Source: Naegleria gruberi (taxonomy: Eukaryota). From it: 64,000 nucleotides of DNA. Positions 35,759-64,000 of the stretch are shown here, in pieces. The stretch's first letter is position 1. Each line of letters begins with the position of its first letter. Position numbers and translations under genes: made by a program. The stretch lies in the NCBI GenBank assembly GCA_000004985.1, contig GG738846.1. One strand, given 5' to 3'. The notes beneath the pieces are model-generated. The model was given only the letters and a program-made list of their open reading frames with translations. It searched no databases and was not told the origin of the DNA.

Positions 35759-38700
35759 ATGAATCCACCAAATAGCCCGTTTAATAACTCTGGACGTTCT
35801 CCCTTTCAAACGCCACCTCCTTCAAAATCTATTCTTTCATCACCTCTTTCTACTTCGGCTCGTATTTATTCTCAACCTTCAACACCAGCAACACCTTTAA
35901 TTCACCTATCATCACCTAGCAACCTTGGATATAATCATGTACCAATGACTTCACCTATGGTACAACGATCCTTTCCACCAATAAATTCATCATCGGAACT
36001 CAGATCACATAAAATTAGAGTATTGAGAGAAAATATTAACAATTTTTTAATGTTTAATAGTCATGAGGCTGATTTATTTATTCAAGATTTTAGAAAAACA
36101 TCGGATGCTTGGGAAATTTTGTTTGATTTATTATTGATGGAGTTTGGAAATCATGAAATTATACAAGTACGTTTTTAATTCCAAAATTATATAATTTAAT
36201 TTTTATTAGAAACCTTCTGAACAATTTTTAATTGCACAACTCATTTACCAAAAAACAATGCACAATTTCCATCAATTGAATGAAAACCAAATAGAGTGGG
36301 TGAGGAGATACTTGCTCAAGGCAATAGTTCTTTTTCACAACAAGTATATTGCTACACCCATTATTGACTATCGTAATATTGTCTCGAGATTGTGTCTAGC
36401 TCTTGCCATGCTCACATTGAATTGGATTCTAGTGTTGGAGGCAAATTTGGATCAAGTAGATTTGTTTGCAGAAATATTCAAGCCTTTCCAAGACAATATC
36501 TTGTTGGAATATAGTAGTGGAAATAGTAATAGTTTAGTTGTTTATGATACCTCACTTTTACTTTCGCCAAGCTCTCAAATTATTCACGTAAATTTGACTG
36601 ATTGCACTCTTGATTGGTTTGCATTCTTGTTGGAACAAATAGAGACCACTAGCGTCTTTAGTAATTCACAACAAGCTGAATTGAAGAAGGAGATGAGAAA
36701 AATGGAGACTAAAATATTAGAGTATATTAGTACGGTGTTATCTGAAAATTTTCCATCCAATTCGGGTATGTATTTCTGTCTTATAGAGTATTAATCAAGC
36801 AAGTATAGGAAAGGAAATGGAATTTGTGATCAATCTTAAAAAGAAATCGGTCAAGGTTCTACAGGATTGGGTTCGTTTTGGTATCTCACCAGAATTTATT
36901 TTTTCAAATAGCACACTTCTCCAAATATTGTTTGGATTGGCAGAAAGATGTGACGACCTCCTTTCTCCTTGCCTCGAATGTATTAATGATATGCTTCATA
37001 CTACCATTTATTTGAGTAATATTCATATTTTGAAACAATACATTCACAACTCCATTCCAATGCTGTGTTCTAAATATGAAAAATACTGTAAAACCATTGA
37101 AGAAGGTTTGTAGTGATGATTTTGTTATAATTTTAACATTCATCCAACATTTTTCACTTTTTCTATACAGATTTCAGTATGAATATTTGTAGAGATATTA
37201 TCAAATTGTTCATGGTATTTTCTGAAAAAATTAATGATTGGATCATTAATTTGGATGCTGTTGAACAGGCTGTAAAGTACAACACAGTACCGAATGGAGG
37301 ATTACTGGATCCAACAGCAAAACAATTGATAGAGGTTATCAATCAATTATCTTCAGGATCCGACCTTAGTCTAATCGAGCTTACTCATCCTTTCTGGTAT
37401 CATTTACACAATACTGATATTGATCTAATCAAACTCGGTTTGACTAGACCAGAACTCAAGAATATTCCTGAGACTGTTAGATCCCACCTATTACAAGAGA
37501 TTACTAAAGAACTCTCTCCATATCACATGTCAATAATGGAGAAAACCATCAACACTGCCATTGACAAATCCATTCAAACTATTGGATTGATAGATTATGA
37601 TACAGATGAATCTGAAAATTTTAGAGATTCTAGTAAGGAAGTCTTTCTTGCTTGTTATTATGGACTCAGAGGAAAGGTCATTGGAGCATGCGAGGAAAAG
37701 CTTGTTTATCTTTTCCAAAAACAAAGTATTTCCAACTTGCAACAAGGAATGGAACAACTTGCCCAACATTTGTCCAATAATGATCTAACTGAGGAATTTA
37801 TGGAAAAGGTTGCATGTGCCTTGATGAGCACTCTACCAGATCTTGCTCTTTTAGAATCTATCCTGTTTTCCATGAATTCATTTGGTGACCTCATGAAAAA
37901 GCAAGAATGTGAAAACTATTTTGCTGAACTATTCTCACAAATTCAATACTTTTCTGATATTGTAGCTAAACTCTCACAAACTGTATCAAACTTGATAACT
38001 CATCCATTCCATACACAATTCACTAGAATGATTACAACTTTGGTAAAGAATACTTGTGGTGGATGCAGAAACACACAGAATATTCTTATTAACTTGTCCT
38101 CTTACCTCCTAGTTCCATTATTTAAAGCCATCTCAAAAACAGTTGAGGTATTCTCAGATAAGATAGTAGCACTTGGAGAACAACCGATCATTTAGTGTAT
38201 TAACTTTCTCATGAAATCCATGAGTTCATTCCAACAAATTCTCAACTCTAAAGTGTAAGTAGTTTTTTACTTTAATTAATAATAACACAACATAGATACA
38301 ACAATTCGAATAATGTCAAATCAGTTATTTATTCTTCAGTTAGTTCTTTCAACTCTCTGTGTGAAGAAGGTTCAAAGATTTGCAGAAATGATACCAGCGG
38401 TAGAGCATCAGAGTTATTTTTCAATTTGGTAAAGAGTGTGTATGAATTTAAATTCTTGAATCAAATTGAGCACAGTCTATCACATCAAATGTATAGAGGT
38501 ATCAGCTTTATAGTTTCAGCATTACCTTCCCAACAACAAGAGCTGTTCACCCTAGTTTTTAATACTATTTTCGAGTCTATTGAATCACTTTTGAAAGAAA
38601 GGGAAGCCCTCTTGCAATATTCTCAAGGAAACCTCGAAGTTCTCAGCTCTGAAAATGCTCTCAACTCTTCGATCAGTTTGCATTTCGAATTGAGAAAATT

Positions 38701-46754: not shown

Positions 46755-49700
46755 ATGAACAGGACGGTTAATATTGTTCTCCTTTCCATAGTTTCCGTTC
46801 TAGCCTTATTCTTCCTTTCTGGAGGTGTAAGTGCTGGTTCTGGTATTTACGAAGCAGCATGTAACACTACTGCTGACTGTGTTTCCACATTAGCTTGTGA
46901 TACTAATACATCCCTCTGTATTTGCGATACTGGTTTGGTTAGATATAATGATTCTCTCTGTGTTCCAGCCTGTACTTCTGATGCCAACTGTACTAATGGT
47001 GGTGTCTGTGATTTAACTTCTGGTACTTGTAATTGTACTGCCAATTATGATGGACCAACTTGTACTGATTCTCTAATTGTTCAAGGTAACAATAGTTCTG
47101 ATAGTAGTAACAATGCTACTGACCCATCAAGTCCTTCTGCTAATAATACTGACTCGTCTAATAGTACAGATCCATCAACTCCAAGTGGTAATAACAGTAC
47201 TAACAATGAAACTAATCCATCAACTCCAGGTGGTAATAACAATACTAGTAATGGTACAACTGATCCAACTAATCCATCTTCCAATAATACCGATCCATCA
47301 ACTCCAGGTGGTAACAATAGCACTAACAATGGTACAACTGATCCATCAACTCCAGGTGGTAATAACAGTACTGGTAATAATACCAATCCATCAACTCCAG
47401 GTGGTAATAACAATACTAGTAATGGTACAACTGATCCAACAAATCCAACCAGTAACAACACTAATCCATCTTCCAACAATACCGATCCATCAACTCCAGG
47501 TGGTAATAACAGTACTGGCAATAATACAGATCCATCAACTCCAGGTGGTAATAACAATACTAGTAATGGTACAGCTGATCCAACAAATCCAACCAGTAAC
47601 AACACTAATCCATCAACTCCAGGTGGTAACAATAGCACTAACAATGGTACAACTGATCCAACAAATCCAACAAGTAACAACACTAATCCATCTTCCAATA
47701 ATACTAATCCATCAACTCCAGGTGGTAATAACAGTACTGGTAATAATACCGATCCATCGACTCCAGGTGGTAATAACAATACTAGTAATGGTACAGCTGA
47801 TCCAACAAATCCATCTTCCAATAATACTAATCCATCAACTCCAGGTGGTAATAACAGTACTGGCAATAATACCGATCCATCGACTCCAGGTGGCAACAAT
47901 AGCACTAGCAATGGTACAGTTACTGATAAGTGTACTGATATCAATTGTGTACACGGTTCATGCATTGATGGTGCCTGTCAATGTGAAACTGGTTATACAG
48001 GTTCTCTCTGTGATCAAGCTATTACATCTAACAATACTGATAAGTGTGCTGATATCAATTGTGTCCACGGTTCATGCAGTGAAGGTGTCTGTCAATGTGA
48101 AACTGGTTATACAGGTTCTCTCTGTGATCAAGCTGTTACATCTAACAATACTGATAAGTGTGCTGATATCAATTGTGTCCACGGTTCATGCATTGATGGT
48201 GTCTGTCAATGTGAAACTGGTTATACTGGTTCTCTCTGTGATCAAGCTGTTACATCTAACAATACTGATAAGTGTGCTGATATTAATTGTGTACACGGTT
48301 CATGCATTGATGGTGTCTGTCAATGTGAAACTGGTTATACTGGTACTCTCTGTGATCAAGCTGTTGATCCATGTACCAACATTAAGTGTGGCAGCCATGG
48401 TTCCTGCTCAAAGGGTGTCTGTGTTTGTACTGACGGATACACTGGTTCGAACTGTGAAACTGCTCCAATTACTTGTAATGGTAAGAGTGAAGCTGAAGGT
48501 GGCTGTTCATTCCATGGTACATGTAGCGCCACTGATAAGTGTATTTGTAATGGTAACTTTGACTCTGCCTCTTTCTGTTCAAAGTGTAAGACTGGTTATA
48601 CAGGTTCTGACTGTTCTATTCCAGTTTGTTTCAATGTTCCTTCTACTTCTAGCAGTGTTTGTTCTGGAAAGGGGTCTTGCACAGCTCCTGATTCTTGTGT
48701 ATGTGCTTCTGGTTACTCTGGAAAGACGTGTTCTTCCTTCTCTTGTTGGGGTATTGATAAGTCCAACAGCACTGTATGTGGTGGTAGCTCTAAGGGTACT
48801 TGTGTTGGTCCAAATAAGTGTTCTTGTGTTTCCAACTGGAACAATCTTGAAAATACCTGTGTATCCTGCAGTCCTGCATACACTGGTGAGACTTGTACTC
48901 AAGCTACTTGTTCTGCCAATACAACTTGTAGTTCCCATGGTTCATGCGATGAAAAATTCAAGTGTGTCTGTTCTGGAAACTGGGATGGTGAATTCTGTAA
49001 TGTTTGTAAGGCTGGTTTTGTAGGTGATAACTGTGATATTGCTTGTTCTGCCTCTACTTGTAATGGTAATGGTGTTTGTACCAAGACTGGAGCTTGTTTA
49101 TGTGTTGGTCACTATGATTCTGCCCAAAAGTGTGCTGCTGGTAAATGTGCTGATGGTTTCCAAGGTAGCGCTTGTGACTATAAGGTAGACAGTTCCTCTT
49201 TCGCTTTTAACCAATTTGGTGATAGAATTATTGCCACTGTTTACACTAGTATGAAGAAATCTGTTAACTGTTCTCAAGTTTTCACATCAGTTGCTACCCT
49301 TGGTGCCGGTGTTCAATGTAACATGGACGGTGTCAGTAAGCTCGAAGTTGTTTTGGGGGCTGGTGCTACTGTAAAGCTTGGTGATTCATTGCAAGTTTAT
49401 ACACTCCTTGGTGATGTTTCTAATACTGTTTCCGTAACTGTTAAGGTTGGTAGCTTTGTTGCTGTCGCACCAACTGCTTATTTGACAACCGATAAGGCTG
49501 TTGTTTCCACTTGTGATACTGTCACTTTGAATGCATTTGACTCTGTTTCTACTGATCGTCGTCCATTGAACTTTGCTTGGACTTGCACTGCTGCTCCAAC
49601 TGCTGATGCCCAGACTACATTGAATAATGCTCTCAAGGTTACCTCAAGTGGTGTTAGACTTAACTTGGTTTCTCTTGGTCTTGTTGCTGGTACTTACACT

Positions 49701-52049
49701 GTTCAAGTCACTGTTACTTCATCATTCAGTGCCTCATCATCATCAAAGAGTGTCTCATTCACTGTAACTGCTAGTCCTGCCCCAGGTCTTTCTATTAAGG
49801 AAGGTTCAGTTGTTGAATATTTGATTGGTACTACTAGCATTATCACTCCAGTAATTTCCTTCCCAACATGTTACACGGGTAATGGTTCTGTTGCTTATTC
49901 ATTCGCTTATATCAACTCTATTGCCACTCCAACCATTGTAACTAAGGATAACATGGTTGTTATTGCAAAGACTAGTACTGCCATCTCTACTGTCGGTGAC
50001 TATTACATTGTTGTTACTGCTGCTGCTAATGGAGCTTCTGAAGTTTCCACTACTGTTAGAATTAAGGCTGTTGCAAAGCCATTAACTGTTACATTCAGTG
50101 TTCCAGATATGACCCAATCTAAGGATGATGCTGTTGACTTCACTGTCAATATTGTTGATCCAAGCGATACTACTGGTACTTTGGCCATTACAAGCACTTG
50201 TGTTGATGCTGATGGTAACACATGTGTGGCCCCAGCTGCTACTGAATCTGCCTCATTCTCAAAGTCCTTACCTGCTGGTAAATATACATTCACTACAACA
50301 GGTACAAAGGATATCAGAACTACAACTGCCAAGTTGACTATCACTGTTGTTGATACTGCAAAAGATAAGATTATTAGAGTTTCCATCACATCCAATACTG
50401 ATTTGTCCACTGTTGATCCAACCAAGGACTTGTACTTGACTTATAACACTTTGGATGCCTTGTCTACATCCGCCAAATTTACCTGGACATGTGACTCTGG
50501 TGACAGCAGTACTTCCTCTCTTTTGACAGTTTCAAAGGCTAACATGGTTCCTGGTGCTACCTACACTGCTTCGTTGAATATTGTAGATGGTGTCAAGTCT
50601 GGTTCTGCTATTGTTTCATTCACTGTTAATGCTCCACCAACAAAGGGTATCTTTGAAGCTTATCCACTTTCTGGTGCTGCTTTGAGCGATTCTTTCGATC
50701 TCAAGTGTGGTAATGGTTGGTCTGATCCACAATCTCCATTGAAATTCCAATTCTTATACTTGGATGCTGCATCTAACAATTGGGTTTCACTCACCGAAAA
50801 GACTGAACAACAAAGCACAAAGGTTCAACTTCCTTCACCATCTTCTGGTGACTCTTTGAAGGTTAAGGCTATTGTTTTTGATGCATTGGGTGCTTCAACT
50901 GAATCCGAGCAACTTTCTATCTCAATTACCAAGCCAAGTACTGCTGATGCCACTAAAGCTTTGAGTGGTTTGGCAGAATCAAAGGGCACTATAACCTTGT
51001 CAGCTGCTTCCTCTGCCATGTCTGTCATTGGTACTGTTGATTTGACAACAGCTACTGCTGAACAAAAGACTCAAATTGCTACCGCTGCCGCCGCTATTGC
51101 TGATGCTTTCATTTCTCAACAAACCAAGACTGAAGCTGTTACCTCAGTTTCTGCTGCCTCTGCTGAAAATAGCTTGTCATTCACAGCCTCCCTTGCTAGC
51201 TCAGTTTCTAAGGGTCTCGTTAGTGATGCTACTACTTCAAAGGTTGTTAGCAATTTGGCTTCCACTACTACAAAGGTTGTTTCTGCATCTTCTGTCAGTC
51301 TCTCTGATTCAGTTCTCGATTCTACCAAGAAAACTGCTGACAACTTCTATGGTTACATTTCTGGTAAGGTTTCTGCTAGAGTTCCACCAGTTTCTTCTTT
51401 GAGAGCTTTCAGTAAGGTCGATCTTGACAATTTGAACAGTGTTTACTCTAGTGTTGCTTCTTTGAAGACTAAGGATGCCGTTCCTGATGCTCCAGCTGCA
51501 ACCGTCACCTCAAACGGATTGACCACAGTTTCTCGTAAGGTCAATCTTGCTACTTTGGCCTCTGAATCTCAAGTTGTTTCTGGTAAGAATAAGATCACCT
51601 TCAAGAGTGCCATTGCTGCTAACTCTGCTTTGGCTAGTTTGAAGTCTGTCACTTATGCTGTAAAGACCACCACTTCCACTGTTACATCTGCTGCCTCAAA
51701 GTCTATCGATTTCTCCATTTCTAATGGTGCTTCTCCAGTTGCTGTTTCTGATTCTGCTGCTATTGCCGATTTGGTCTTTGAACTTTCTGCCAAGAGATCT
51801 GTTGCTGCTACTACTTACACATGTAACAAGATTACTAATGGAGTTGCTGCTGCTGATTCAACTTGTACTATTGTTGTTGGTACTGATGGTACTGTAACTG
51901 CTAGTGTCAAGAGCACTGGTGTCTATGTTTTAACTGCTTCCACCCCAGTTACTCCTGCTGCCACCAAGAGTGCTAAGGTCAATGCTGCTCCATCAATGGG
52001 CTTCTCTGCTTTGGTTGCCTTGATCGCTGCTGTTGTTGCTGCTTTGTAA
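46755..52049 (+). CDS. GPI-anchored cell-surface glycoprotein: signal peptide, Cys-rich N-terminus, mucin-like PSTPGGNN(S/N)T repeats, about 20 EGF/tenascin-type Cys repeats, a long Ser/Thr/Ala/Val-rich stalk and a C-terminal GPI signal; 1764 aa, single exon.
   Basis: MNRTVNIVLLSIVSVLALFFLSGGVSA. Repeats of TDPSTPGGNNSTNNGT with dense N-glycosylation sequons. Four repeats of CxDINCVHGSCIDGxCQCETGYTGSLC, followed by further CxCxxGYxGxxC units. The C-terminus ...NAAPSMGFSALVALIAAVVAAL has an omega-site-like small residue followed by a hydrophobic tail. Confidence 0.7.
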   Translation: MNRTVNIVLLSIVSVLALFFLSGGVSAGSGIYEAACNTTADCVSTLACDTNTSLCICDTGLVRYNDSLCVPACTSDANCTNGGVCDLTSGTCNCTANYDGPTCTDSLIVQGNNSSDSSNNATDPSSPSANNTDSSNSTDPSTPSGNNSTNNETNPSTPGGNNNTSNGTTDPTNPSSNNTDPSTPGGNNSTNNGTTDPSTPGGNNSTGNNTNPSTPGGNNNTSNGTTDPTNPTSNNTNPSSNNTDPSTPGGNNSTGNNTDPSTPGGNNNTSNGTADPTNPTSNNTNPSTPGGNNSTNNGTTDPTNPTSNNTNPSSNNTNPSTPGGNNSTGNNTDPSTPGGNNNTSNGTADPTNPSSNNTNPSTPGGNNSTGNNTDPSTPGGNNSTSNGTVTDKCTDINCVHGSCIDGACQCETGYTGSLCDQAITSNNTDKCADINCVHGSCSEGVCQCETGYTGSLCDQAVTSNNTDKCADINCVHGSCIDGVCQCETGYTGSLCDQAVTSNNTDKCADINCVHGSCIDGVCQCETGYTGTLCDQAVDPCTNIKCGSHGSCSKGVCVCTDGYTGSNCETAPITCNGKSEAEGGCSFHGTCSATDKCICNGNFDSASFCSKCKTGYTGSDCSIPVCFNVPSTSSSVCSGKGSCTAPDSCVCASGYSGKTCSSFSCWGIDKSNSTVCGGSSKGTCVGPNKCSCVSNWNNLENTCVSCSPAYTGETCTQATCSANTTCSSHGSCDEKFKCVCSGNWDGEFCNVCKAGFVGDNCDIACSASTCNGNGVCTKTGACLCVGHYDSAQKCAAGKCADGFQGSACDYKVDSSSFAFNQFGDRIIATVYTSMKKSVNCSQVFTSVATLGAGVQCNMDGVSKLEVVLGAGATVKLGDSLQVYTLLGDVSNTVSVTVKVGSFVAVAPTAYLTTDKAVVSTCDTVTLNAFDSVSTDRRPLNFAWTCTAAPTADAQTTLNNALKVTSSGVRLNLVSLGLVAGTYTVQVTVTSSFSASSSSKSVSFTVTASPAPGLSIKEGSVVEYLIGTTSIITPVISFPTCYTGNGSVAYSFAYINSIATPTIVTKDNMVVIAKTSTAISTVGDYYIVVTAAANGASEVSTTVRIKAVAKPLTVTFSVPDMTQSKDDAVDFTVNIVDPSDTTGTLAITSTCVDADGNTCVAPAATESASFSKSLPAGKYTFTTTGTKDIRTTTAKLTITVVDTAKDKIIRVSITSNTDLSTVDPTKDLYLTYNTLDALSTSAKFTWTCDSGDSSTSSLLTVSKANMVPGATYTASLNIVDGVKSGSAIVSFTVNAPPTKGIFEAYPLSGAALSDSFDLKCGNGWSDPQSPLKFQFLYLDAASNNWVSLTEKTEQQSTKVQLPSPSSGDSLKVKAIVFDALGASTESEQLSISITKPSTADATKALSGLAESKGTITLSAASSAMSVIGTVDLTTATAEQKTQIATAAAAIADAFISQQTKTEAVTSVSAASAENSLSFTASLASSVSKGLVSDATTSKVVSNLASTTTKVVSASSVSLSDSVLDSTKKTADNFYGYISGKVSARVPPVSSLRAFSKVDLDNLNSVYSSVASLKTKDAVPDAPAATVTSNGLTTVSRKVNLATLASESQVVSGKNKITFKSAIAANSALASLKSVTYAVKTTTSTVTSAASKSIDFSISNGASPVAVSDSAAIADLVFELSAKRSVAATTYTCNKITNGVAAADSTCTIVVGTDGTVTASVKSTGVYVLTASTPVTPAATKSAKVNAAPSMGFSALVALIAAVVAAL
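47095..47925 (+). repeat. Imperfect in-frame tandem repeats (48-nt and 30-nt units) encoding the mucin-like domain
   Basis: Recurrent ccatcaactccaggtggtaataacagtactggtaataatac[c/a]gatcc units with synonymous and Ser/Asn variation. They generate the spurious overlapping ORFs 47077..49023 (+) and 47081..47965 (-). Confidence 0.85.
47923..48378 (+). repeat. Four near-identical 114-bp tandem repeats, each encoding one 38-aa EGF-like unit
   Basis: The unit actgataagtgt[a/g]ctgatatcaattgtgt[a/c]cacggttcatgc...tctctgtgatcaagct[a/g]ttacatctaacaat is repeated four times, with only a few substitutions between copies. Confidence 0.85.
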
Positions 52050-52152: not shown

Positions 52153-55100
52153 TTAAATCCAATTTTTCTTTGCATCCCGAGTCCAAATTTGTAGCAATTC
52201 GGTGGATCTGAATATTCTTAACAAGTTTACAAACATGGTTTCTTCCATTGCCAAATCCTTATCCTCTCTTGCCTTGTAAATATCTTGACAATAACATAAA
52301 ATCAAATCTACATTGTCCAAATCTTCAAATGTAATTCTTCCAACAAGATTACTGCTGTATAAACGAACAAACTGAGCTACAGCCAACACAAAAGATGTAT
52401 AGAAGGTAATAATACCAAAACTACTGATGGCAGAAATGACAGAATCAGCTGCTACAATATTAGTACTCTGAATAAAAAAGAAAGGACCTCCAGTTATGCT
52501 CTTCAAATTACCACTCTTTTCCAAGGGATAGAACTTTGTTGGTTGTGTACATGACATGAACCAAGAGACAAATCCTGGTGGATTATGCACAAGTTCAGTC
52601 CTCGACGAGTTGTAAACATTTGTTACAGTGAGAGAACAATTTGGCAAGTATCGACTTTCCATAACTGTGGCAGTAGCAAGCGCCGAGTACTTGTTCATCA
52701 TGTATGGATTGTAAGAGAGTGGAATATCAATGCTCTCTTTCAAATTTTCAGAATTGACTTTGGAAACATTATAATTAATCATTTGAGCCAATTGTTTTCG
52801 TTTCCAAGCATTCAATACAATACTTTGCCGAGTTTCCAATTCCAATTGAGTGGATGGACCACTTCTTTTCACAAGTAAACTCATTGTCAAGTTGAGTGCA
52901 AGTGTCTCATTGGCCAATGCTTCCACCATACTCATTCTACTTGGTGTTGAAATGAGCCAATACCTTTCTGAATATGGAGCAAGTGTAAAGTTTTGAATCC
53001 AAAAAGTAGGATCATAATTAGGGAATAATTTCAATCCATTTCCGTCATAGAAATCAACAAAGGTTTCCAAACTCTTTTCTGGATTAACTTTGAAATATTC
53101 ATTCTGATAGAATGGCTCAAAACCTTCAATTCCAATTGAAAATTGAATACTATTCACAGTGTTATAACTGAGAGCAGGATTGGCAGTTGAATAGAACAAT
53201 AATGGAAAGAAGATAATCATGGCAAAGACAATAAATAGCAAAAGACCACTTGTTGCCTTTGTAGTAAGGAAAATACGATTACCAAATCCTTTACCTTGTA
53301 AAATCTTATACTCCAAGTCGCATTTTCTCTTATAAAGTTGACTATAGACATCTTCCAATTTCAAATATTCATAAAAAGTCAATGTAGTATCAATAAATGT
53401 CCAATCCAACAAGGTCTTCAATTCAAATACGAATGGAATTGCTCTGTAAACTAAATAGACGTATTGAGCAATGTAATAGTAAGACTTGGTAAAGAATTGA
53501 GTATATCTTCTCTTTGGATAGCCAGTTCTGATTTGTAAACATCCCAAAAAGAGATAAACACACTTGATAAAGAATAAAATCTTGAGGAGTACCAAACCAA
53601 TAGTATTCTGATTTCTGGAAACTTCAACAAAGAAGGCAATGTAAACAATATGATAAATTAATACAACTAAAAAGTGGAATATCAACTTGCCAGTTGCAGT
53701 GGCAAACAAGTACAATACACGTTCAATACAAATTTCAATAAAGAATAGGAAGAGAATAATGACAAATGTTCCAGAGAGCTCATTAGATTTGATTGCTCCC
53801 AATGTTTCATCGGCAGCTCTACCACTCATACTAGAGAAACTAAAGAAGAAAAAGACAAATGCCAAAATTTCAACTGCAACAGTTACAACATAATAATCTA
53901 TACCAAGTTTGAATTGATCATTTGTTAAACCCTTAAAATGATTAATAAACTTGGATAGTCCTCTTCTGAAAATATTTGGCTTTTCACTGTTATCCTTTTT
54001 ACCTTTCTTATCTTCTTCTTGTTGAACATTGAATTTGACAGTCTTTTTGGACTCTTTCTTCTCCTCATTGTTTGTTGCATTGGATGGTCGAGGTGTTGCA
54101 GTCATGATATCATTGGTTACTAGCTCGACAGATGTTGCTGTGTTGGCTCTATTTCTTCCAGTAGTAGTAGTAGTATTGGTGAGAATTTGTGAATTGGATG
54201 GTAAAATCATTTGATCATCTCTTGGTTCAATGGTAGCATTTGTGGTTGTAATAATTGGATTATCTTGTTGTGTAGTGTTATTTTCTTGTTGATTGGCAGA
54301 GGCAAGTGCAGCTGCAGATAATCTCTTCTTTCTCGAATTGGTCTTCCATTCTCCACGATTTCTAGTAATTTCACGATGGAAAAAGATTGCAAGCATAATT
54401 AACAAGTACATGACAATATCAGCCAATAGAGCTGTACTTGGTTGCCATCCCAATAAGAAAATTGCTGGATCAGATTCAGTTGATTTGAGATTGTCAGGTA
54501 AACCAGATTGTACTAGATATAAAATATATTGAACACTAATCAATAGTTGAGCCAATATAAGCATGAGTTCCCAAAAGTATCTGTGAGGATATGGATATTG
54601 CATGGCTGCATATGTCAATGAAAAGAACGTAAAGGCCGTATTGAAATAAGTTGGAGCATAGAGTAAATTAACCAACATGGCAAAGTAACAAATGACATCC
54701 GTATTGCTGAAGAATAGTTTGGTAAGGGCTACGAGTAATTGTTTCAATTTCAATACAATTGGAACCCAATTGAATGGTTTCTTTTTCATATCGGGATGAA
54801 CTTTGGATTGTTCAAGTTTGAGTTGTAATAAATCATTCAACTCTTGTGTTGTAAATTCTTTTGATTTGAGATTTGGAATATCAGCTTGATCTTCCTTTTC
54901 CTCCTTTTCTTTTTCATCTTCTGTTAATTTAATTTCATCTTCAGGTTGTTGCTCCAATTCAACAAGTGTTTCAGTAGTGGTGGTAGTTTCATTCTTCTTC
55001 TTCCACTCCTCTTCCTTTTCTTCAATGTATTCATTGATGGCATCTGCAATAATTTCATCCAAATTAACTCTATATTTCTTCTTAATTTCCAATTCATCCA

Positions 55101-58100
55101 TCCAAGCAATTCCAATAAATATTTGAATACGATTAACAATCAAATCAGTTAACATGTAAGCGTAGTGACCAACATTGGCAAATACTACAGCAAGTAAACT
55201 CTTTGCTCTAAATAGGAGAGGTAACTTTGGAGTTGATTCCTCTTTCTTATTTTCTTGAGAACCTTCTTGAGCAATTTCTGGAGCAACTTGTTGAATGACC
55301 TTACTCAATGCCTCATTGACAGAGTCATTTCTAGCATGTTTGGATATAATATTCAATTGTTGTTCCAATTTTGAAGATGGTGCACCTAAAACATCGCCAA
55401 GAGCAACAATTCTATCATGTGGAACAATCTTGGAAAGGATATTCTTCATTACCTTTTGAACCTCCTCTTTAGAAATATTACTTGGAAGGAATTCTTGGTT
55501 TGGATCAGATGGAAGATCCAACTGACCACGCTCGAAATGCACAGGTCTTCTCTTTGCTGAATTATCAACTACTAGAGTGGAGCTCTTGTAATTTTGTAAA
55601 TTCTCCAAAGTTGAAACGACTTCTCTCATCTTTTTCTGGAATTTATGCTCTGCCTTCTTCAAGCACTTTTTCATTAATTGTTCTTCCTTATTCAGGTTAG
55701 AGACAATCTTTTTTCTAATCTTGGCTGATTCCTTATTCTCCAAATCCAATAAATCACTCATTGCAAGTGCTAAAATAGCGCGTTCTCTTTCAATCTTTTC
55801 TGAATTCTTGGCATATGCATTGACTACCTTTTCATATTCTTCTTTGAGCATGTGCTTTCTATTGTAGAAACTTTGGAAATCAGAATCCTTGTTCACTTCA
55901 TGGAAACTTCTGAGTGCTTGTCGGTTGGCATCTCTTCTCTTTTCTGAAAAGAGTCCCTCTGCAAACCTTGATAAAATTTGAGCAGCTCTATAAGCTTGAT
56001 TTCTTCTGTACTTGGTGGCCCGTTCTTGACTTTCTCTGTATAGTAAATTAATGAAATGAATGTAATCCTCACTTTCGAATAATAAAATTTGCAAGTAATA
56101 GAGGCAGACTACAATAATTTCGGTGGTAAAACTTTCAAGGCCTCTTGCTTTAAGACCAAATAGGAGGCAAACATTCTTTACCCAACCACTTGTATCATTT
56201 TCGTTACCCCAATTAATAGGATCTCCCAACAATACAATTGGAATTTGATAAATTGCATCAATTACAAATGTTAAATAATAAAAAATACCAATTCCTCTCC
56301 AGAATGGAACTGTTCTCCAATACAATCTATTAAACAAGTTCAAATAGAATAAACAGAGAATCATTTGACCTAATTTGATAACATTTGAATCGATGGCTGC
56401 ATCAATAAACATGACAATCAAGACTATAAAACAAAAGAATCTATAAACTATCAACTTGATCCAATTCCACAATTTCTTTTGTTGATCTGGTGTTGTAAAG
56501 TCTTTGATTTTTTGAATTTTTCCTGTTTCAATGTTACGTTTGATTAAACTGCTTGTATCCAAGTGGACAATAAGTGCATTATCTAATTTCTGGGTTCTGG
56601 AAAGGAAGGATGAAACAATTTCACCTCTCTCACGTTTTGGAAGTTTTTCAGGTTGAGAAACTTCAATATGTTGCAATCTTGCATACATTCCTTTGAAGAA
56701 TACTCGTGCCTGCAAGGCCATAAAGAACATCATCAAGTAGAGAATGACTACAATGTACGTATTGCTAATTACTCCTCCAGATGTAGAGGTCAAATTGAGA
56801 ATAATATACTTGCTAAATATTGGAATATTCATCATGGCTTCGTAAAATTGCATTGAACGAACTATTTGCAATCTAAAGAAGAAGAGAATTAACATGTTAA
56901 TTTCAACAACCATTACTAAAAAGATCCATCCTCTTCTCAAAATTGTACTATTCTTTCCAGTAAAGAAACAAACACCAAAAACAATCAAATAAATGAATCC
57001 CCACAATGTTTGAATCAATGAAAGTGATCCTAACAATAGAGTAAAGAGAGAAATTTCAAATCCATAATCATCATAAAAGTGATTACAATAATATTTGAAA
57101 GATGAGAATAGCTTTCGTAAAAACTTGATAATCTTTCTCTTGTAGAAGGATTTAAAGTTTTCTTCTTCAGTTAAATCAGTTGGATGATCTTCATCAAAGT
57201 TCATCTTTTCAAATTCCTCTCTACTGATATAGATGGTATTTCTATTTCTCGCCTTGGATTTTCTCTTGTCAGCTGATGATGAAGGTCTCAACTTTTGAGC
57301 AAAACTAGCCATTGGATCATTCTTGCTTTTAACATTAACTTCTGCCTCTATGAATAAACATCCCTCATCATAGAGACCTCTACTCTTCATGGATCTCTCC
57401 CAACGATAGGTAACCTTTTGGAGGAGAGATGCAACAAATACCAATAAACTAGACCACAATACATTTCCAATGTGATGTCCTTCTGTTGATCTAGCATCTT
57501 CAAGTCCAATATAACCCAACCAAGTACAAACACCAGTGGAACGACCAAAATTCTCAACTTGATGTTGAACAATTGCTCCCAATGCACTATCACACAAACC
57601 ATTTGTAAAGAATGGATGTTGATAAATATACTTGATTGTCATGATAAATCCACTGTAGAGAGCTATCAAGAACCAAATCTTACTAGCAATAACAGGTGCA
57701 GGAGCAAATACAAGAACTAAAACCAAATAAATCAGACCAATAATATTTGGATTAAAGTTGGAAGCCAAGAAGAGGAAAATAATCAACAATTTAGGAGTAT
57801 GCATAACACAGAAACGTTTCATGACCAAGAAGCATTCCAATAGGAGTGAATCTATTTGCTCACTGAATATAATTTGTTTCTCAATTTTCACATGAGATGA
57901 TTCTTGAATAGTTTCAACAATTTCGTCCATCAATGATGGTGTATGTTCATGAATGTGTGTTGGACCAGTAGTAGTAGTAGGTGGTTGTTGCTGTGGTTGA
58001 TTTGGAATAGTTTGTTCTTGTTCTTTCTTTCTAATTTCTTCTTGTTCCTGCACTGTCTTGATTCTTTGTCTTCTTCTGCCAATAACAAATTGGAAATATT

Positions 58101-61100
58101 TCAATTGAACAATAGTCAATATGGCAATGATCGTGAAAGGAAGTAAACTGACATTCTTGTATTGGTACTTGTATAGACCAATGCTCTTTGGGGTAAGATA
58201 TCCGTAATATGAAGGAATTTCAATTGACTTGTCCAATTCATGTTCTCTGATAAGTTGCTTTGCTCTTTCAACTTCTGGCAAGATACTTTGAATGTAGGCG
58301 TACAGGGATGGGAATTGATAAGCATACTCTACAACAAATACCAAAGTAGAATAGAAAACAAAGACGTACCACAAGCCAACAAAGAATTGGAATAATCTGT
58401 AACCAGCTTTTGTGGAATTTGAATTGTGAACTGAGAGAACATTTAAACAGAAACATGCCATAACAATCATTAGGAATATGAATCCAATAAATGATGCTTC
58501 TTCTTGAAGGAAAATTACCAAAAAGACTGCAAAATAACTTGCCAAAGTTCCTAAAAAGTTTAACAATTCAGTTTCTAAAAAGATCTTATCCCAAACAAGA
58601 ATTAATTTTTCAAAGAATGTGTGCAAGTATGGATTCTTTTCTTTTGTAAACATATCCCATTGATCAAAACTAGTATTAACATTCACATTACCAACTGTCT
58701 TTACATTTGAAATATGATATTGAATACTGGTCAATGTTAGAATGAAAATGTGCCAAATAAGTCCTTTCCAAAACACTCCAAAACTACTTGTACTAATTTG
58801 ATTTTCAATTGTAATAAATGATGGATTAAAACCTATAATTTCATACGGTAAATCAACAACTTCAGGTGCGTACCACACATTGAAGAAGTACAAGGCAAGA
58901 ATAACAAATTGACAATATAGAACTAATAAAATCCATGTTTTTCTTGCAAAGGATGGGAAAATGAAATAGACAGCACAAAATATTACTTGGAAAATGTTAA
59001 ATTCACAGTGTGAAAAAGTAACTTACAATAAATAGCATGAAGTAAATCAGCATTTTCAGATGTCAAATCGGCAAAGTAGCAAACAATCAAACTCAAATAG
59101 AAACTGTTTCTCACAAAGAGAATGAGCAATACTTTCCAAATATAGTCAAAGAGTATAATCTTAATAGTTTGTAAAATCAACTTGATCTTAACCCAAACTC
59201 TTTTAGATGTATTTTGTGGTTCACACTCAACCTCTCCCAAATTATTGTCTGCTTCATCATTGATTTTATCCAATTCAGTCATGTCAACATTAGTTGGGTC
59301 TCTAATAGAATCTGAGAATACTGAATCATGAATAGATTGATCACCCATTGCAGGAGACATTATAACATCCAAATCACTATCTTCCTCATTGGTATAATAG
59401 ATGGATCTACGTTTAATATCCATAGAAGTTGATCTGTTACTATTAACAGAATCATTTGGAACAAGGGGAGCTGTATCATCCATTCCATAGTTATTATTGA
59501 TAGAACGTTTGTGGAACCAATATTTTGTAGATTTTAAAAATGCTAAACGTTATTCGAGTATTTGAATAAGAAAACATACCTTTTCGTTGAGAACCAGTCG
59601 AAGCAGCAGCAGTATTACTTGTTGATACTGTTTTTTTATGTCTCTTCAATAGCTTGGATACAGCACTAACTCTTACAGTCAACCCCATAAATAAGGACAA
59701 GATTAATTGACCAAAAATGACTGCAACAAGAACAATAGATCTACCACTATCACTAACATCTGTTAAAAAAGCTCCAACAGTTGTTCCTACAATGGCTCTA
59801 TAGAGAATTCCTTGAAGAGGATAAAACAATACTCCTCCACTTCCAGATGGATTAAATTCTTTTAGTAAAAGTAGTATGTGAAAAATTAAATAAATAATTA
59901 CAATTAAAACATACCATTTGCTGACATTTCTGTGGTTTGTGGAATGTATGATGCAAAATTTGGCATTTGGAAAACATATTGAGCACAAATATAAAGCAAA
60001 CTATAAATGAAACAGAAAGGTAACAGAATTACCATGACCTTATTGGTTTCAAATCTTGGTCCTGGTGATAAAACCATACCAAGATAAAGGAAAAGTAAAT
60101 AGGGAAGTGAACACAAACTTGGAACGGACAAAATGATACAAATCAATGCAATCATCAATGCATAGAGAATGAACTTTTGCAATTGTTCATATAAGAACAT
60201 TCTAAACTTGTAAGATGATTCATAAATGGAATGTACACCACCTGCAATTCCACCCATTGAAGTGTGTTCATCAATTTCTATTAATCTTCTCTCTTCAGAT
60301 TTATAGTACAAATCCTGAAGATATTCCTCAGAGTTTGTATCCAAATCTTCCTTATTAGAAATCATGGTTGGCAAAAGTGTTAAAAACTTTTTAACTTGTC
60401 TTTGTAGTTCTCTTTCTTGTAAAACTTTTGCAATATATTGACAAACAAAGTTACAAGCCAAGATGAATGTAATTAGAACAAATGTGATGAAAACATATCC
60501 AGTGTAGAACTTTTTGAAAAATTCAAATGATTTCAAATTACCATCAATATCAAAAAATCCAGCCATTTTACCATACGGATTTTGTAAAATCATTTTAGAA
60601 AAGTAACCAGTTGAGGAGATTGAATTGGTTTGGAAACGTGTTAAAAAGTAGAAAATGAGCAAGAGTATAGAATAAACTTGTGTAAATATAAATAATCTAA
60701 TGATGAATTGTAATAGTTATGAAAATTATTATAATTATATATTAAATTTAAAATAAACATACCCAATTGAAATAAAAGTCTTCAAGCTACCAAAACTGGC
60801 AAGTGTAATAATTAAAAAACTCAATAATAAATAAGGAATTCCTACAAAACTTGGATAAAAACTTGCAGTAATCATCAAAAAGAGTGCGAATATAATCAAT
60901 TTCAATTCATGAATATTGACATGTTTCTTTTCAGTCTTTTCCTTTGGAGGCATTGATCCAACATGAGTTACTGAAGTTTTCAATTCTTGTACAGAACATG
61001 TCAAGAGCTTTGGATGTTTAGTAAAAACACCAGGTAAATCCCACATGTACATGGTAGCTCCCTTAACTTTAGGAATTGATTCAATTTGTTGTTTCTTCAA

Positions 61101-62282
61101 AGCTGAATCATCCAATTTAGTATTAGAAGTAGAAACCTTAGTTGTCACAACATCATCCACTTGCATGGCATACATGGTTTCATTCTGACCTTCTCCAATA
61201 TCAATTGTTGTTATTCCTGTATCAGTGGATTTAACAGTTTCTACTTTACCACTCATATTAATAAGGGAAGATTTAAAAGTTGACGGTGTTACTTTCTTAA
61301 TTTTTAAAGAAACACCTTCCTTTTCTAATTTTAATCTTCTTCTCCATAAAACTGAAAGGAAAATAAAACAAGTAAATGAGAAAATAATAACAAGAGCATC
61401 TGGAATGACATGAATTAGAATGAATGAAATGTCTTTCCCTTTCAAACTGTTAATTAAATACATAGTAATTGTTGTTGTTAATATGATAACATAATGAAAA
61501 CAAACCTCACAAATCCAATATCTGTCAAAACATCTGTCAAATAATTATCATTAATAGAAACAACACTGACAACAATAGTACCAATAAAATAACAAATAGA
61601 AACAAGTAAAGATATTGACAATGTACTAAATCTCGGAATCATCATCCAAATTCTGTTAATTCCAACTTTTTGAAAATATGGATAAAAACTTGGTGTTAAA
61701 TTGTGTAAAAAGAATATTAACATGTATGTTAAATTAATAAATGATGGTCTAATAGCAAAAGCTATTATTATTGTAATATTAAATAAATTGTAATATATCA
61801 ATTAATTATAATATATTTAAAAGTTAAAATAACAAATACATACACACTAATAATGACAAGTAAAACAATACACAAATAATGATAGATATAATTTCTAATA
61901 CAAGTGTTTTTCCAATAACTTCATCTGTTAAATTTGTCATTTGGTCCAAAGCATTGAACGATGTTTGACTTTGTTCAATACTTGATTGATCATCAGCAAT
62001 GTCAATGTCTCCTCCTCCTCTAATACCACCACCACTTGTAGTAGTTTGTATTGTTGAGAGAATATCCGATTTACTATCATCCATTATCAAATCATCATCT
62101 AATAATGATGGTGAAATATCATTGTTATTATTAATAATGTTATTATCGTTATTGTTGTTATTGTTGTTATTGTTGTAATTAAATGTTAAATAGGAGGGTG
62201 TTGTTTCATCAGCACTGTTACCTAACATGGAGGATCTTCTCCTCTGATTATCATTGTTGTTGTCAGTAGTGATAGTATTCAT
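52153..62282 (-). CDS. piezo: Piezo-type mechanosensitive cation channel, 7 exons: 61844..62282, 61506..61761, 60763..61446, 59915..60696, 59580..59858, 59027..59542 and 52153..58985; 3262 aa.
   Basis: The C-terminal pore region is diagnostic: ...PFYQNEYF..., GGPFFFIQ, ...ILCYCQDIYKAREDKDLAMEETMFVNLLRIFRSTELLQIWTRD. There are dozens of TM helices throughout. The N-terminal exon has poly-Asn. Introns of 82, 59, 66, 56, 37 and 41 nt (donors GTATGT or GTTTGT, acceptors AG) are all phase-consistent, and the CDS of 9789 nt is divisible by 3. An alternative acceptor at 58923 would lengthen the last intron to 104 nt. Confidence 0.85.
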
Positions 62283-62630: not shown

Positions 62631-64000
62631 TCAATAATTAGCAGCTGCTGCCATAGAATATGTTGACTGACCATTAGCAAGTGGAATATTCATCATGGAA
62701 CGAGCATATCTAGTTTCTGCCACCTTAATCTTTTGTGATTTTTCATCCTCAACTCTGTATCTCTTCCGACAATACACTGCAATTACAATAAGAATTATCA
62801 CAATAATGCAACAACACACCAACAAGATTGCTCCAACAATTGTAATGGCAACTACTCCTAAAAGAGTCCAATCGAATGAATAGGTGGTTGTTGCTTTCAT
62901 TTGTCCAATCAATATAACATTACCCAACTTGTTACAGGTACAACTAATTGATGTTCCTGTGTAGGCTTTGACACTACAACCAAACACAACTTTCAAAGCC
63001 TGATCATAGTAGGCACAATAAGTTTTCGAATAATTGAATGAATCTGAAATGTTTCTCAATGGGAATGTATAAACAATGGTAGAGTAGTCTACCATATTAT
63101 TATTAATGTTATCTTCTCCAAAATCTAAAGAAATTGAGAATGGTGAAATAACATATGGTGTAATGATAAATCCACTTTCGGTAATGGTCATTCTATCAGC
63201 AATTTTAAAAATGTCCTTTGTTGTCAAAACTGAATAAACAATATTGCTTTTAGAAAAAGCCTTTGGGAAAACATCGCCAATAAATGAAACAGATGAATCT
63301 TCTCCCAAGTCAATTTTGATTCCCTTGTATTGTAATCTTGGTACCTTTGCTGAAACTAATCTAAATGTTGTGGAAATGAATTGGGATGGATCAGTTCCAA
63401 TAATTTTGTTTCTCATTAGGAATCTAGAAGACTTTTTTGCTAGGGCCACAGCAGATATCATATTGTCTTCTTCACCTCTGAATGATCTCCACTCAAAATA
63501 TTTGAACATTGATTCTAAAGAGTAGTGGATCAGTAATTGAACATTTTTTGATGGAATGATTTCTTGAGTTTCAGTCATTCTGGTGAGTGTTTTATCGAGA
63601 AGGGAAATAGTGTTGGATACAACACTTGTTGCCACAGAGGTATAATCTCTCAACATTGAATCAATGGCAACAAGAATCAAATGTAAATGGTAAATGTTTG
63701 GATCTGGGTGCATAATTAGAGCAGTTTTCAAGTCTGACATTAAACTGACCAAATTATCTTGAAGTTCTTTGAAATCGGCAATTTTCATTGAACAATCTGA
63801 TCCATAATATCCTTCAATACATGTACAAACACCTTCACTCACAACACCGTTCATACAAGTAGTTCTATTTGGGTTATTCATATTGGCTGAAATTGACCTC
63901 ACAATAGCACTGGCAGTGTAGAGATTTAAATTCCAATTTCCTTCAGAATTTGAGTAAAGATCAGTCCAAAATGAAACTTTTTCCAAAATATTCTTTTCAA
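62631..64000 (-). CDS. Single-pass membrane protein with an EGF-like Cys motif (3' part; the 5' end runs off the window)
   Basis: The ORF is open to the window edge. It contains CMNGVVSEGVCTCIEGYYGSDC, a TM helix LLGVVAITIVGAILLVCCCIIVIILIVIAVY and a short cytoplasmic tail ending AAAANY*. Confidence 0.4.
   Translation of the reverse strand, partial: EKNILEKVSFWTDLYSNSEGNWNLNLYTASAIVRSISANMNNPNRTTCMNGVVSEGVCTCIEGYYGSDCSMKIADFKELQDNLVSLMSDLKTALIMHPDPNIYHLHLILVAIDSMLRDYTSVATSVVSNTISLLDKTLTRMTETQEIIPSKNVQLLIHYSLESMFKYFEWRSFRGEEDNMISAVALAKKSSRFLMRNKIIGTDPSQFISTTFRLVSAKVPRLQYKGIKIDLGEDSSVSFIGDVFPKAFSKSNIVYSVLTTKDIFKIADRMTITESGFIITPYVISPFSISLDFGEDNINNNMVDYSTIVYTFPLRNISDSFNYSKTYCAYYDQALKVVFGCSVKAYTGTSISCTCNKLGNVILIGQMKATTTYSFDWTLLGVVAITIVGAILLVCCCIIVIILIVIAVYCRKRYRVEDEKSQKIKVAETRYARSMMNIPLANGQSTYSMAAAANY

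Follow-up and report, generated by a model that had tools for sequence, protein, structure and literature searches.

Six short, probably constitutive introns in the Piezo gene of Naegleria gruberi, two of them of 37 and 41 nt

Gene model and prior record

In a 64,000-nt stretch of the Naegleria gruberi genome (contig GG738846.1 of assembly GCA_000004985.1; hereafter the window), a gene encoding a Piezo channel appeared to be interrupted by very short introns, two of them of only 37 and 41 nt. This raised the questions of whether such small segments are really spliced out and whether the 41-nt intron can be extended in frame to a distal acceptor. Rebuilding the model from the raw sequence yielded a Piezo gene on the minus strand (62282..52153) with seven exons and six GT..AG introns. 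The joined coding sequence of 9,789 nt encodes 3,262 amino acids followed by a stop codon, with no internal stop codon. In an exact look-up, all 3,262 residues were identical to EFC50135.1/XP_002682879.1 (NAEGRDRAFT_61913, UniProt D2UZF0, Naegleria gruberi), and the full-length protein was found on one contig only. Since the proteins are identical over 3,262 residues, the public model must have the exon-intron structure rebuilt here (seven exons, six introns). The complete, phase-consistent seven-exon gene proposed by an earlier, sequence-only reading of the window was thus borne out, both by this match and by the Pfam Piezo domains described below. The features on the minus strand are as follows:

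61844..62282, minus strand: exon 1, with ATG at 62282; encodes the low-complexity poly-Asn N-terminus plus the first hydrophobic segment
61762..61843, minus strand: intron 1, 82 nt, phase 1, GTATGT..AATAG, G+C 0.10
61506..61761, minus strand: exon 2
61447..61505, minus strand: intron 2, 59 nt, phase 2, unusual donor GTTTGT
60763..61446, minus strand: exon 3
60697..60762, minus strand: intron 3, 66 nt, phase 2, GTATGT..ATTAG
59915..60696, minus strand: exon 4
59859..59914, minus strand: intron 4, 56 nt, phase 1, GTATGT..AAAAG
59580..59858, minus strand: exon 5
59543..59579, minus strand: intron 5, 37 nt, phase 1, GTATGT...AATAACGTTTAG
59027..59542, minus strand: exon 6, a variable loop followed by the conserved block ...YFADLTSENADLLHAIY
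58986..59026, minus strand: intron 6, 41 nt, phase 1, splitting a TTA Leu codon, GTAAGT...TTTAAC(N10)AG
58923..58985, minus strand: segment of 63 nt that would be lost in the proposed 104-nt alternative intron, L-IFCAVYFIFPSFARKTWILL-V, ending at the distal AG (58924-58923)
52153..58985, minus strand: exon 7, 6,833 nt with the stop codon, containing the ORF 52153..58893; encodes most of the blade and the anchor, outer helix, cap, inner helix and C-terminal domain

None of this is new: gene, exact exon-intron structure and Piezo identity entered the public record with the 2010 N. gruberi genome and with a 2013 survey, in which Prole & Taylor listed this accession as the N. gruberi Piezo homologue (PMC3681921). 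The deposited sequence does not differ from the rebuilt model, and the public label merely reads 'predicted/uncharacterized protein'. The locus therefore carries little weight as a discovery; the value of the analysis lies in its corrections, which concern the lineage, the support for the tiny introns and a proposed alternative splicing event that is set aside unless RNA-seq differs. As regards lineage, dictyostelid Piezo proteins had been suggested as the comparison group. A dictyostelid origin was rejected, as the nearest homologue came from Naegleria lovaniensis and the exact match from N. gruberi; the source is a heterolobosean, and dictyostelids are thus the wrong group. Judged from the sequence, the locus is very probably a single-copy N. 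gruberi Piezo gene (NAEGRDRAFT_61913) with six constitutive short introns and an unused distal AG at 58923.

Protein architecture

The predicted architecture is that of a Piezo mechanosensitive cation channel, with a long N-terminal blade of hydrophobic helices that leads into the anchor, outer helix, extracellular cap, inner (pore) helix and C-terminal domain. The Pfam Piezo_cap profile (PF12166) matched aa 2942-3255 with an E-value of 2.2e-62 (211.8 bits against a cut-off of 26.9 bits; profile positions 2-297 of 298), Piezo_THU9_anchor (PF24874) matched aa 2682-2918 at 3.2e-68, and a THU_Piezo1 match was found at 1e-16; together, the Pfam domains span aa 2412-3255. Searches with phmmer matched 15 distinct PDB Piezo1/2 sequences over aa 2400-3257 with E-values down to 4e-68 (4e-68 for a solved Piezo2 chain, 7e-59 for a Piezo1 chain). 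The PF(X2)E(X6)W ('PFEW') motif, which is absolutely conserved in Piezo proteins (Prole & Taylor 2013, PMC3681921), was read from the translation as PFVFELKTLLDW within ...YRAIPFVFELKTLLDWTFID.... Merging of hydrophobic regions (Kyte-Doolittle, 19-residue window) gave about 36-40 putative helices. Piezo channels have about 38 transmembrane helices, with nine 4-helix units making up the blade.

Vertebrate Piezo1 and Piezo2 (PDB 5Z10, 6KG7, 9VEE) align with the C-terminal ~850 residues (E 4e-68 to 4e-52), that is, from the last transmembrane helical units through the anchor, outer helix, cap and inner helix to the C-terminal domain. They share the PF(X2)E(X6)W motif and, by the hydropathy estimate, may have a similar count of hydrophobic segments (about 38). 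In contrast, the predicted Naegleria protein is longer (3,262 aa compared with 2,521-2,822 residues in the PDB Piezo1/2 chains), begins with a poly-Asn stretch and has extended low-complexity loops. Its N-terminal blade has diverged too far for a significant Pfam match (Piezo_TM1-24, 18.9 bits, below the 28.8-bit cut-off).

By homology, Naegleria Piezo would assemble as a trimer whose pore is opened to cations by membrane tension. A plausible role would be to inform the crawling amoeba of confinement or load, as with Dictyostelium Piezo, which is required for load sensing in migration and for which the response is calcium-dependent (PMC7007555). Dictyostelium discoideum Piezo (PzoA) likewise belongs to a free-living, crawling amoeboid cell and is likely a functional analogue; it comes from another eukaryotic supergroup, Amoebozoa rather than Heterolobosea/Discoba, and the comparison is one of presumed function.

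Conservation of the six introns

For comparison we used N. lovaniensis (L001), the genome L006 (run SRR29240419), probably N. fowleri, with a DNA identity of 86% to N. lovaniensis, and the contigs L002, L004, L005 and L008 (assembly GCA_016850925.1, JAESGV01). All six N. gruberi introns are AT-rich (G+C 0.10-0.29), with GT..AG termini and the donors GTATGT (four introns), GTAAGT and GTTTGT (one each). After their removal a single stop-free frame remained, with unbroken homology to N. lovaniensis at 57-65% identity. Five of the six intron positions (1, 2, 4, 5 and 6) are common to N. lovaniensis and L006, and every shared intron holds gaps whose length is not divisible by three. Between N. lovaniensis and L006, indels of this kind fall in introns, apart from short compensated stretches within low-complexity loops and the four isolated frameshifts of N. 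lovaniensis.

At intron 1, tblastn revealed homology to exon 1 upstream of the same intron (q65-148 in N. lovaniensis, q62-143 in L006); an intron is present at this site in both relatives and is longer, and the N. lovaniensis match q142-230 covers exon 2. With homology to N. lovaniensis and L006 on both flanks of intron 1, the poly-Asn N-terminal exon is joined to the remainder of the gene, as the sequence-only reading had proposed. Intron 2 has counterparts of equal position and phase in N. lovaniensis (59 nt, GTAAGT) and L006 (61 nt). As an alternative donor for this intron, GTGAGG at 61510 was rejected: it is phase-incompatible with the sole acceptor, and the orthologues place the intron one codon later. 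Intron 3 is private to N. gruberi among the genomes compared. N. lovaniensis and L006 run continuously through this point, so that removal of intron 3 gives back unbroken homology. Intron 4 corresponds to 72 nt in N. lovaniensis and to 84 nt with in-frame stops in L006.

The termini, the 5′ consensus, the restored frame, and the retention of position and phase while length and sequence drift are those of U2-type GT-AG introns. On these comparative and reading-frame arguments, together with the public gene model, the splicing of each intron looks real. The gene would be transcribed from the minus strand and its six short introns removed. Homology searches returned no transcript-derived proteins across junctions 5 and 6, only genomic relatives (P0007, P0008), and also none of N. 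gruberi's own entries; N. gruberi RNA-seq data are on record under PRJEB23822 (PMC6142364).

The 37-nt and 41-nt introns

Both tiny introns had been placed exactly by the sequence-only reading, and comparison of relatives indicates that they are real. Intron 5 measures 37 nt in N. gruberi, 41 nt in N. lovaniensis (L001 12748..12788, ...TATAACGTATAG) and, in L006, 39 nt that contain in-frame stops (...TATAACAAATAG), with an ATAAC..AG 3′ end common to all. Since these lengths differ modulo 3, the segment cannot be coding. Intron 6 comprises 41 nt in N. gruberi, 45 nt in N. lovaniensis, 54 nt (with stops) in L006 and 33 nt in L002 and L005. It is always in phase 1 and in the same Leu codon, and the L005 copy has an in-frame TGA. 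An alignment scan of metagenomes for the junction region found two loci only, both from JAESGV01, the source of the 33-nt intron; these are not transcripts. Furthermore, the intron-less homologues P0021 (a paralogue on L008), P0025 and P0036 read HAIY-L-[ILV]F...ARKxW without a gap, exactly as expected if the 41 nt are spliced out. Both tiny introns would be ordinary constitutive ones whose lengths fall toward the lower end of the Naegleria range. Each would most likely be recognized intron-wise, through a strong 5′ site (GTATGT/GTAAGT), a TAAC branch-like motif lying 6-11 nt from the intron 3′ end and the first AG after this motif.

Alternative readings of the locus

If the locus were a pseudogene or mis-assembled, the small 'introns' might be frame-correcting artefacts of model building, and the N. 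lovaniensis orthologue is indeed split by frameshifts into four annotated genes. However, these frameshifts are isolated deletions of 1-2 nt relative to L006, typical of assembly errors, and exon 7 of N. gruberi holds a clean ORF of 2,246 codons, the equivalent in L006 being 2,204 codons long. The splice signals at the intron boundaries conform to consensus and are kept across species. An independent metagenome contig (ENA, L003) is 99.84% identical to the window, with substitutions and one 3-nt indel only; lacking differences in either tiny intron, it is uninformative on the 37-nt and 41-nt introns themselves. An artefact of this kind has a practically negligible probability. A longer intron 5 of 109 nt (59579..59471) would reduce the 37-nt intron to an artefact of annotation, with the 24 residues AFLKSTKYWFHKRSINNNYGMDDT lying in the intron. 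This form has GT..AG termini, is phase-consistent with long open frames on either side, and the loop following intron 5 is weakly conserved. Yet the same donor in N. lovaniensis (41 nt) and L006 (39 nt) is followed by a 3′ end ATAAC-N3-TAG as in the 37-nt form. After that AG, both relatives are open and mutually homologous (MNVKPSFSW...), with a K..W match to N. gruberi LKSTKYW and, for N. lovaniensis, a weak K-[SP]-[ST]-x-x-W similarity. In A+T content, the 72 additional nucleotides fall below this gene's other introns, and the short form is the one adopted in the deposited N. gruberi model as well as in the N. lovaniensis annotation, rendering the 109-nt intron highly improbable.

For intron 6, it had been proposed that a 104-nt form using the acceptor at 58923 could add or remove 22 hydrophobic residues. 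The coordinates are exact and 63 nt would be removed in frame, but the net loss is 21 residues, because L986..V1007 is replaced by a single F, and support for use of this form was not obtained. Use of both the proximal (58986) and the distal (58923) acceptor would generate Piezo isoforms differing by these 21 residues of a transmembrane region. The distal AG lies in frame in a TTTTATTAG context resembling real acceptors, and N. lovaniensis, L002 and L005 each carry an AG at the corresponding L|V junction, so that, with N. gruberi, four of the five sequences examined have it. The fifth, L006, lacks it (CTT|GTT). Moreover, phase-compatible AGs (xxA|Gxx) are found at 7.0% of the codon junctions in the coding sequence, giving a probability of 0.78 for at least one within 21 codons, and A is the last base of about 27-38% of the Leu codons in these genes, which makes recurrence of the distal AG unremarkable. 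The 21 residues align without gaps in eight relatives, as an N-terminal block; FARKTWI does not vary among the four nearest sequences, namely L002 and the three Naegleria genomes, and for FPSFARKTWI and its neighbours the amino acids are kept despite synonymous changes. According to hydropathy, the skipped segment covers parts of two hydrophobic helices, and its deletion would merge helices 978-998 and 1001-1022 into one, inverting the topology of everything downstream. A low-confidence AlphaFold prediction for aa 926-1300 (pLDDT 46), built on an alignment of four sequences, was drawn on solely for a helix break near P995. A TAAC branch-like motif precedes the proximal AG by 10 nt, which makes this AG the first after the motif. 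An AG no more frequent than by chance, missing from one relative and bordering a conserved segment does not have the marks of an alternative 3′ splice site, and dual acceptor use is very unlikely. With constitutive splicing at 58986, the distal AG would be a coding L|V codon junction rather than a used splice site. There is likewise only a slim chance that the intron 6 site, as an ancient intron that is always of 33-54 nt and phase 1 and splits the same Leu codon of a transmembrane helix across deeply diverged heterolobosean Piezo genes, serves as a regulated switch through retention or the distal AG. Were this the case, retention would truncate the protein of N. gruberi, L006 and L005 and lead to an insertion of 11-15 residues in L002 and N. 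lovaniensis, and distal AG use would yield a Piezo minus one transmembrane helix; such a switch could tune Piezo dosage, e.g., between amoeba, flagellate and cyst stages.

Intron length in context

The two tiny introns had also been taken to define the minimal spliceable intron of the organism. This was overclaimed, as a single window cannot define such a minimum; elsewhere in the same window, a plus-strand candidate intron starting at 36766 spans 34 or 43 nt (36766..36799 or 36766..36808), and a related organism (L002, L005) uses 33-nt introns. For N. gruberi, a genome-wide mean intron length of 203 nt has been reported, and in the same Naegleria study the minimum intron length was set to 30 bp for N. 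fowleri mapping (PMC8296547); our search of the literature for a published N. gruberi intron-length distribution retrieved only mean values and this mapping minimum. Introns of about 25 nt are known from ciliates (PMC5014332) and one of 35 nt from Giardia (PMC1201135). These ultra-short introns resemble the Naegleria intron 5 and 6 sites in being GT-AG or near-canonical and well under 50 nt, with a branch site near the 3′ end. Unlike in ciliates and Giardia, the Naegleria sites (33-54 nt) are mixed with longer introns, and they are not the shortest known.

The N. lovaniensis annotation

The division of N. lovaniensis Piezo into four gene models is probably due to assembly indels, as judged from the alignment. 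The frameshifts lie near L001 positions 14546, 15230, 16284 and 16568 (PYSW02000034.1). The N. lovaniensis annotation also translates through its 45-nt in-frame intron 6. Both observations may help annotators of that genome.

Reconstruction and identity of the Piezo gene

An ORF listing of the window showed a 2,246-codon ORF on the minus strand (52153..58893), preceded upstream by five shorter ORFs with shifting frames between 58983 and 62282. The Piezo model was rebuilt by reading the minus strand, translating all three frames and joining ORFs via GT..AG intervals. Only a single exon set permitted such joining. The joined coding sequence of 9,789 nt encoded 3,262 aa plus a stop codon and contained no internal stop codons. 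The G+C content of the introns was 0.10-0.29, compared with about 0.32 in the exons.

Exons and introns of the Piezo gene obtained by ORF joining
62282-61844, 61761-61506, 61446-60763, 60696-59915, 59858-59580, 59542-59027, 58985-52153, minus strand, exons 1-7
61843..61762, minus strand, intron 1, 82 nt, donor GTATGT
61505..61447, minus strand, intron 2, 59 nt, donor GTTTGT
60762..60697, minus strand, intron 3, 66 nt, donor GTATGT
59914..59859, minus strand, intron 4, 56 nt, donor GTATGT
59579..59543, minus strand, intron 5, 37 nt, donor GTATGT
59026..58986, minus strand, intron 6, 41 nt, donor GTAAGT

This independent rebuild agreed with an earlier sequence-only reading in protein length, in the number of introns, in where the two tiny introns lie and in the position of the distal acceptor (58923). 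An exact-sequence look-up matched the 3,262-aa model to a public entry (EFC50135.1 / XP_002682879.1 / UniRef100_D2UZF0; locus NAEGRDRAFT_61913, contig of 1.0 Mb) that is titled 'predicted protein [Naegleria gruberi]'. The proposed model therefore coincides with the deposited one in every intron. XP_002682879 was cited as the N. gruberi Piezo homologue by Prole & Taylor (2013) (PMC3681921). The gene and its exon-intron model were thus already known. The G+C content of the window agrees with the published N. gruberi value of 33% (PMC8296547).

Pfam searches with the full model returned Piezo_THU9_anchor (3e-68, aa 2682-2918), Piezo_cap (2e-62, aa 2942-3255) and THU_Piezo1 (1e-16), together with a Piezo_TM1-24 match at aa 151-269 that was under its cut-off. 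In phmmer searches against PDB sequences, aa 2400-3257 matched Piezo2 (9VEE, 4e-68; 6KG7, 9e-63) and Piezo1 (8YEZ, 7e-59; 5Z10, 4e-52). The translated model also carries the PF(X2)E(X6)W motif described in PMC3681921, as PFVFELKTLLDW. These analyses demonstrate the gene structure and the family membership of the pore module. A hydropathy scan gave roughly 36-40 hydrophobic helices, an estimate rather than proof, which is consistent with the 38-helix plan of Piezo. Among the homologues returned, proteins of Naegleria lovaniensis were closest, sharing 57% identity across the N-terminal 1,180 aa and 65% across the C-terminal 1,081 aa. The dictyostelid orthologues suggested for comparison belong to the wrong lineage.

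Conservation of the introns in relatives

The introns were tested by comparative genomics across loci L001, L002 and L004-L009. L001 is the N. lovaniensis locus (PYSW02000034.1), while L006/L007 derive from a Naegleria, probably N. fowleri, whose DNA is 86% identical to N. lovaniensis. L002/L004/L005/L008 represent two Piezo paralogues of a more distant metagenome relative (assembly GCA_016850925.1, WGS prefix JAESGV01; 28-41% identity), and L009 stems from one further relative.

In the three Naegleria genomes, introns 1, 2 and 4 sit at the same position and in the same phase but differ in length (59/59/61 nt for intron 2 and 56/72/84 nt for intron 4 in N. gruberi/N. lovaniensis/L006, the last copy of intron 4 being full of in-frame stops). 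Intron 3 was absent from N. lovaniensis and L006, both of which were continuous across the N. gruberi junction, thus validating its splice sites; judging from these genomes, it is a lineage-specific gain or loss inside the genus Naegleria.

The N. gruberi copy of intron 5 measured 37 nt, against 41 nt for N. lovaniensis (L001 12748..12788) and 39 nt for L006. Each copy follows an exonic G and closes with ATAAC, three bases and TAG (AATAACGTTTAG, TATAACGTATAG, TATAACAAATAG). The lengths modulo 3 (1, 2 and 0), together with stops in the L006 copy, show that the segment cannot be coding and that the frame is kept only if it is excised. A phase-consistent 109-nt form (59579..59471) was rejected because the proximal ATAAC..TAG end is kept in three species and the residues past the proximal AG look homologous (LKSTKYW vs VKPSFSW).

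Intron 6 varied from 41 nt in N. gruberi to 45 nt in N. lovaniensis, 54 nt in L006 and 33 nt in L002/L005. In every copy the intron interrupts one and the same TTA Leu codon behind the first base and starts with the donor GTAAGT; four of the five copies have a TAAC motif 8-10 nt ahead of the AG. In-frame stops occurred in L006 and L005. The copies of N. lovaniensis (45 nt, L001 13446..13490) and L002 (33 nt, 8590..8622) were stop-free multiples of three and had been read through in deposited or called proteins (CKYLKSMGSLTNILL in C9374_008329; CKSLLVKLTVI in L002). Homologues without an intron here (P0021 on L008, P0025 on L009, and P0036) showed gap-free ...HAIY-L-[ILV]F...ARKxW..., the exact product of the 41-nt splice. 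Most L001-L006 indels that were not multiples of three fell inside the intron intervals, the exceptions being four isolated N. lovaniensis frameshifts and short compensated runs in low-complexity loops. On this comparative evidence, the reality of both the 37-nt and the 41-nt intron is well supported, and both are ordinary for this lineage.

In GCA_016850925.1, which holds at least two diverged Piezo paralogues, the 33-nt intron 6 of L002 was absent from L008. L005 is a close variant copy whose intron differs at 5/33 positions, with nearly identical flanking exons.

Proposed alternative splicing of intron 6

The sequence-only reading had further suggested alternative splicing through the distal acceptor, removing 104 nt. 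The distal AG (58924-58923) arises where a Leu codon ending in A meets a Val codon, and N. lovaniensis, L002 and L005 likewise have an AG at this L|V junction. L006, however, has CTT|GTT there, indicating that the site is not conserved within Naegleria. Moreover, phase-compatible AGs occur at 7.0% of the codon junctions of the coding sequence, giving a probability of 0.78 that one or more fall within the next 21 codons. The 63 nt lost in the long form encode L-IFCAVYFIFPSFARKTWILL-V, which falls in an N-terminal block aligned gap-free in 8/8 relatives compared; the four closest of these, namely L002 and the three Naegleria genomes, all have FARKTWI unchanged, even though their codons differ by several synonymous substitutions. 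The alignments thereby show that the part of the blade flanking intron 6 is conserved. By hydropathy, the skipped segment spans the end of a helix at ~978-998 and the start of another at ~1001-1022, so that its deletion would be predicted to fuse two membrane helices and invert everything downstream. A helix break at 995 (the model's own numbering) was also seen in a low-confidence AlphaFold model. We therefore regard the distal AG as a coincidence expected by chance, and meaningful use of this acceptor as very improbable.

Minimal intron size

That the 37-nt and 41-nt introns define the minimal spliceable intron does not follow. ORF joining across the window yielded a tiny GTATGT..AG candidate on the plus strand (36766..36799, 34 nt, or 36766..36808, 43 nt) that links two long ORFs in an unrelated gene with HEAT repeats (importin/transportin-like), followed by an intron at 37106..37170 on the same strand. 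Either acceptor keeps the frame, the forms differing by three residues (ASI); if used, the 34-nt form would be shorter than both tiny Piezo introns. The remaining candidates were mostly 52-90 nt, with a few of ~150-280 nt. In the distant relative, 33-nt introns occurred at two places <400 nt apart, the second one of L005 lying ~300 nt downstream. The N. fowleri genome paper gives a minimum intron length of 30 bp, 'based on an assessment of predicted genes' (PMC8296547). Lengths of 37 and 41 nt are thus at the short end of the range, and nothing here indicates a limit.

Putative function, neighbouring genes and related records

By analogy with the established Piezo literature, N. gruberi Piezo would be a trimeric, tension-gated cation channel. 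Among crawling amoeboid cells, the closest precedent for a putative Naegleria role is that of Dictyostelium, which needs Piezo to switch, in a calcium-dependent manner, to bleb-driven movement under load (PMC7007555). The Dictyostelium work is cited in a 2026 paper on how N. gruberi behaves in confinement, where 'Piezo' appears only among the references (PMC13598255).

A convergent ORF, a polycystin-1/REJ-like extracellular module adjoining the gene, ends 103 nt from the Piezo stop codon (52155-52153):
46755..52049, plus strand, convergent ORF, 1,764 aa, REJ domain (3e-37) and teneurin-type EGF repeats

Upstream of Piezo, the ORF at 62631..63986 on the minus strand gave no Pfam match.

The N. 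lovaniensis orthologue (L001 10001..20193) is annotated as four genes of 1402, 221, 258 and 1174 aa, of which C9374_008329 is the first and C9374_008332 the last. This split results from isolated 1-2 nt deletions relative to L006, at about 14546, 15230, 16284 and 16568, in a region that N. gruberi and L006 encode in a single exon; the deletions are probably assembly errors. A 6.3-kb metagenome contig (L003; ENA ERZ929261, run ERR1078381, project PRJEB11402) matched window positions 59795..53461 with 99.84% identity, differing by seven substitutions and one 3-nt indel, all within exon 7, which points to a near-identical N. gruberi strain, or contamination, in that sample.
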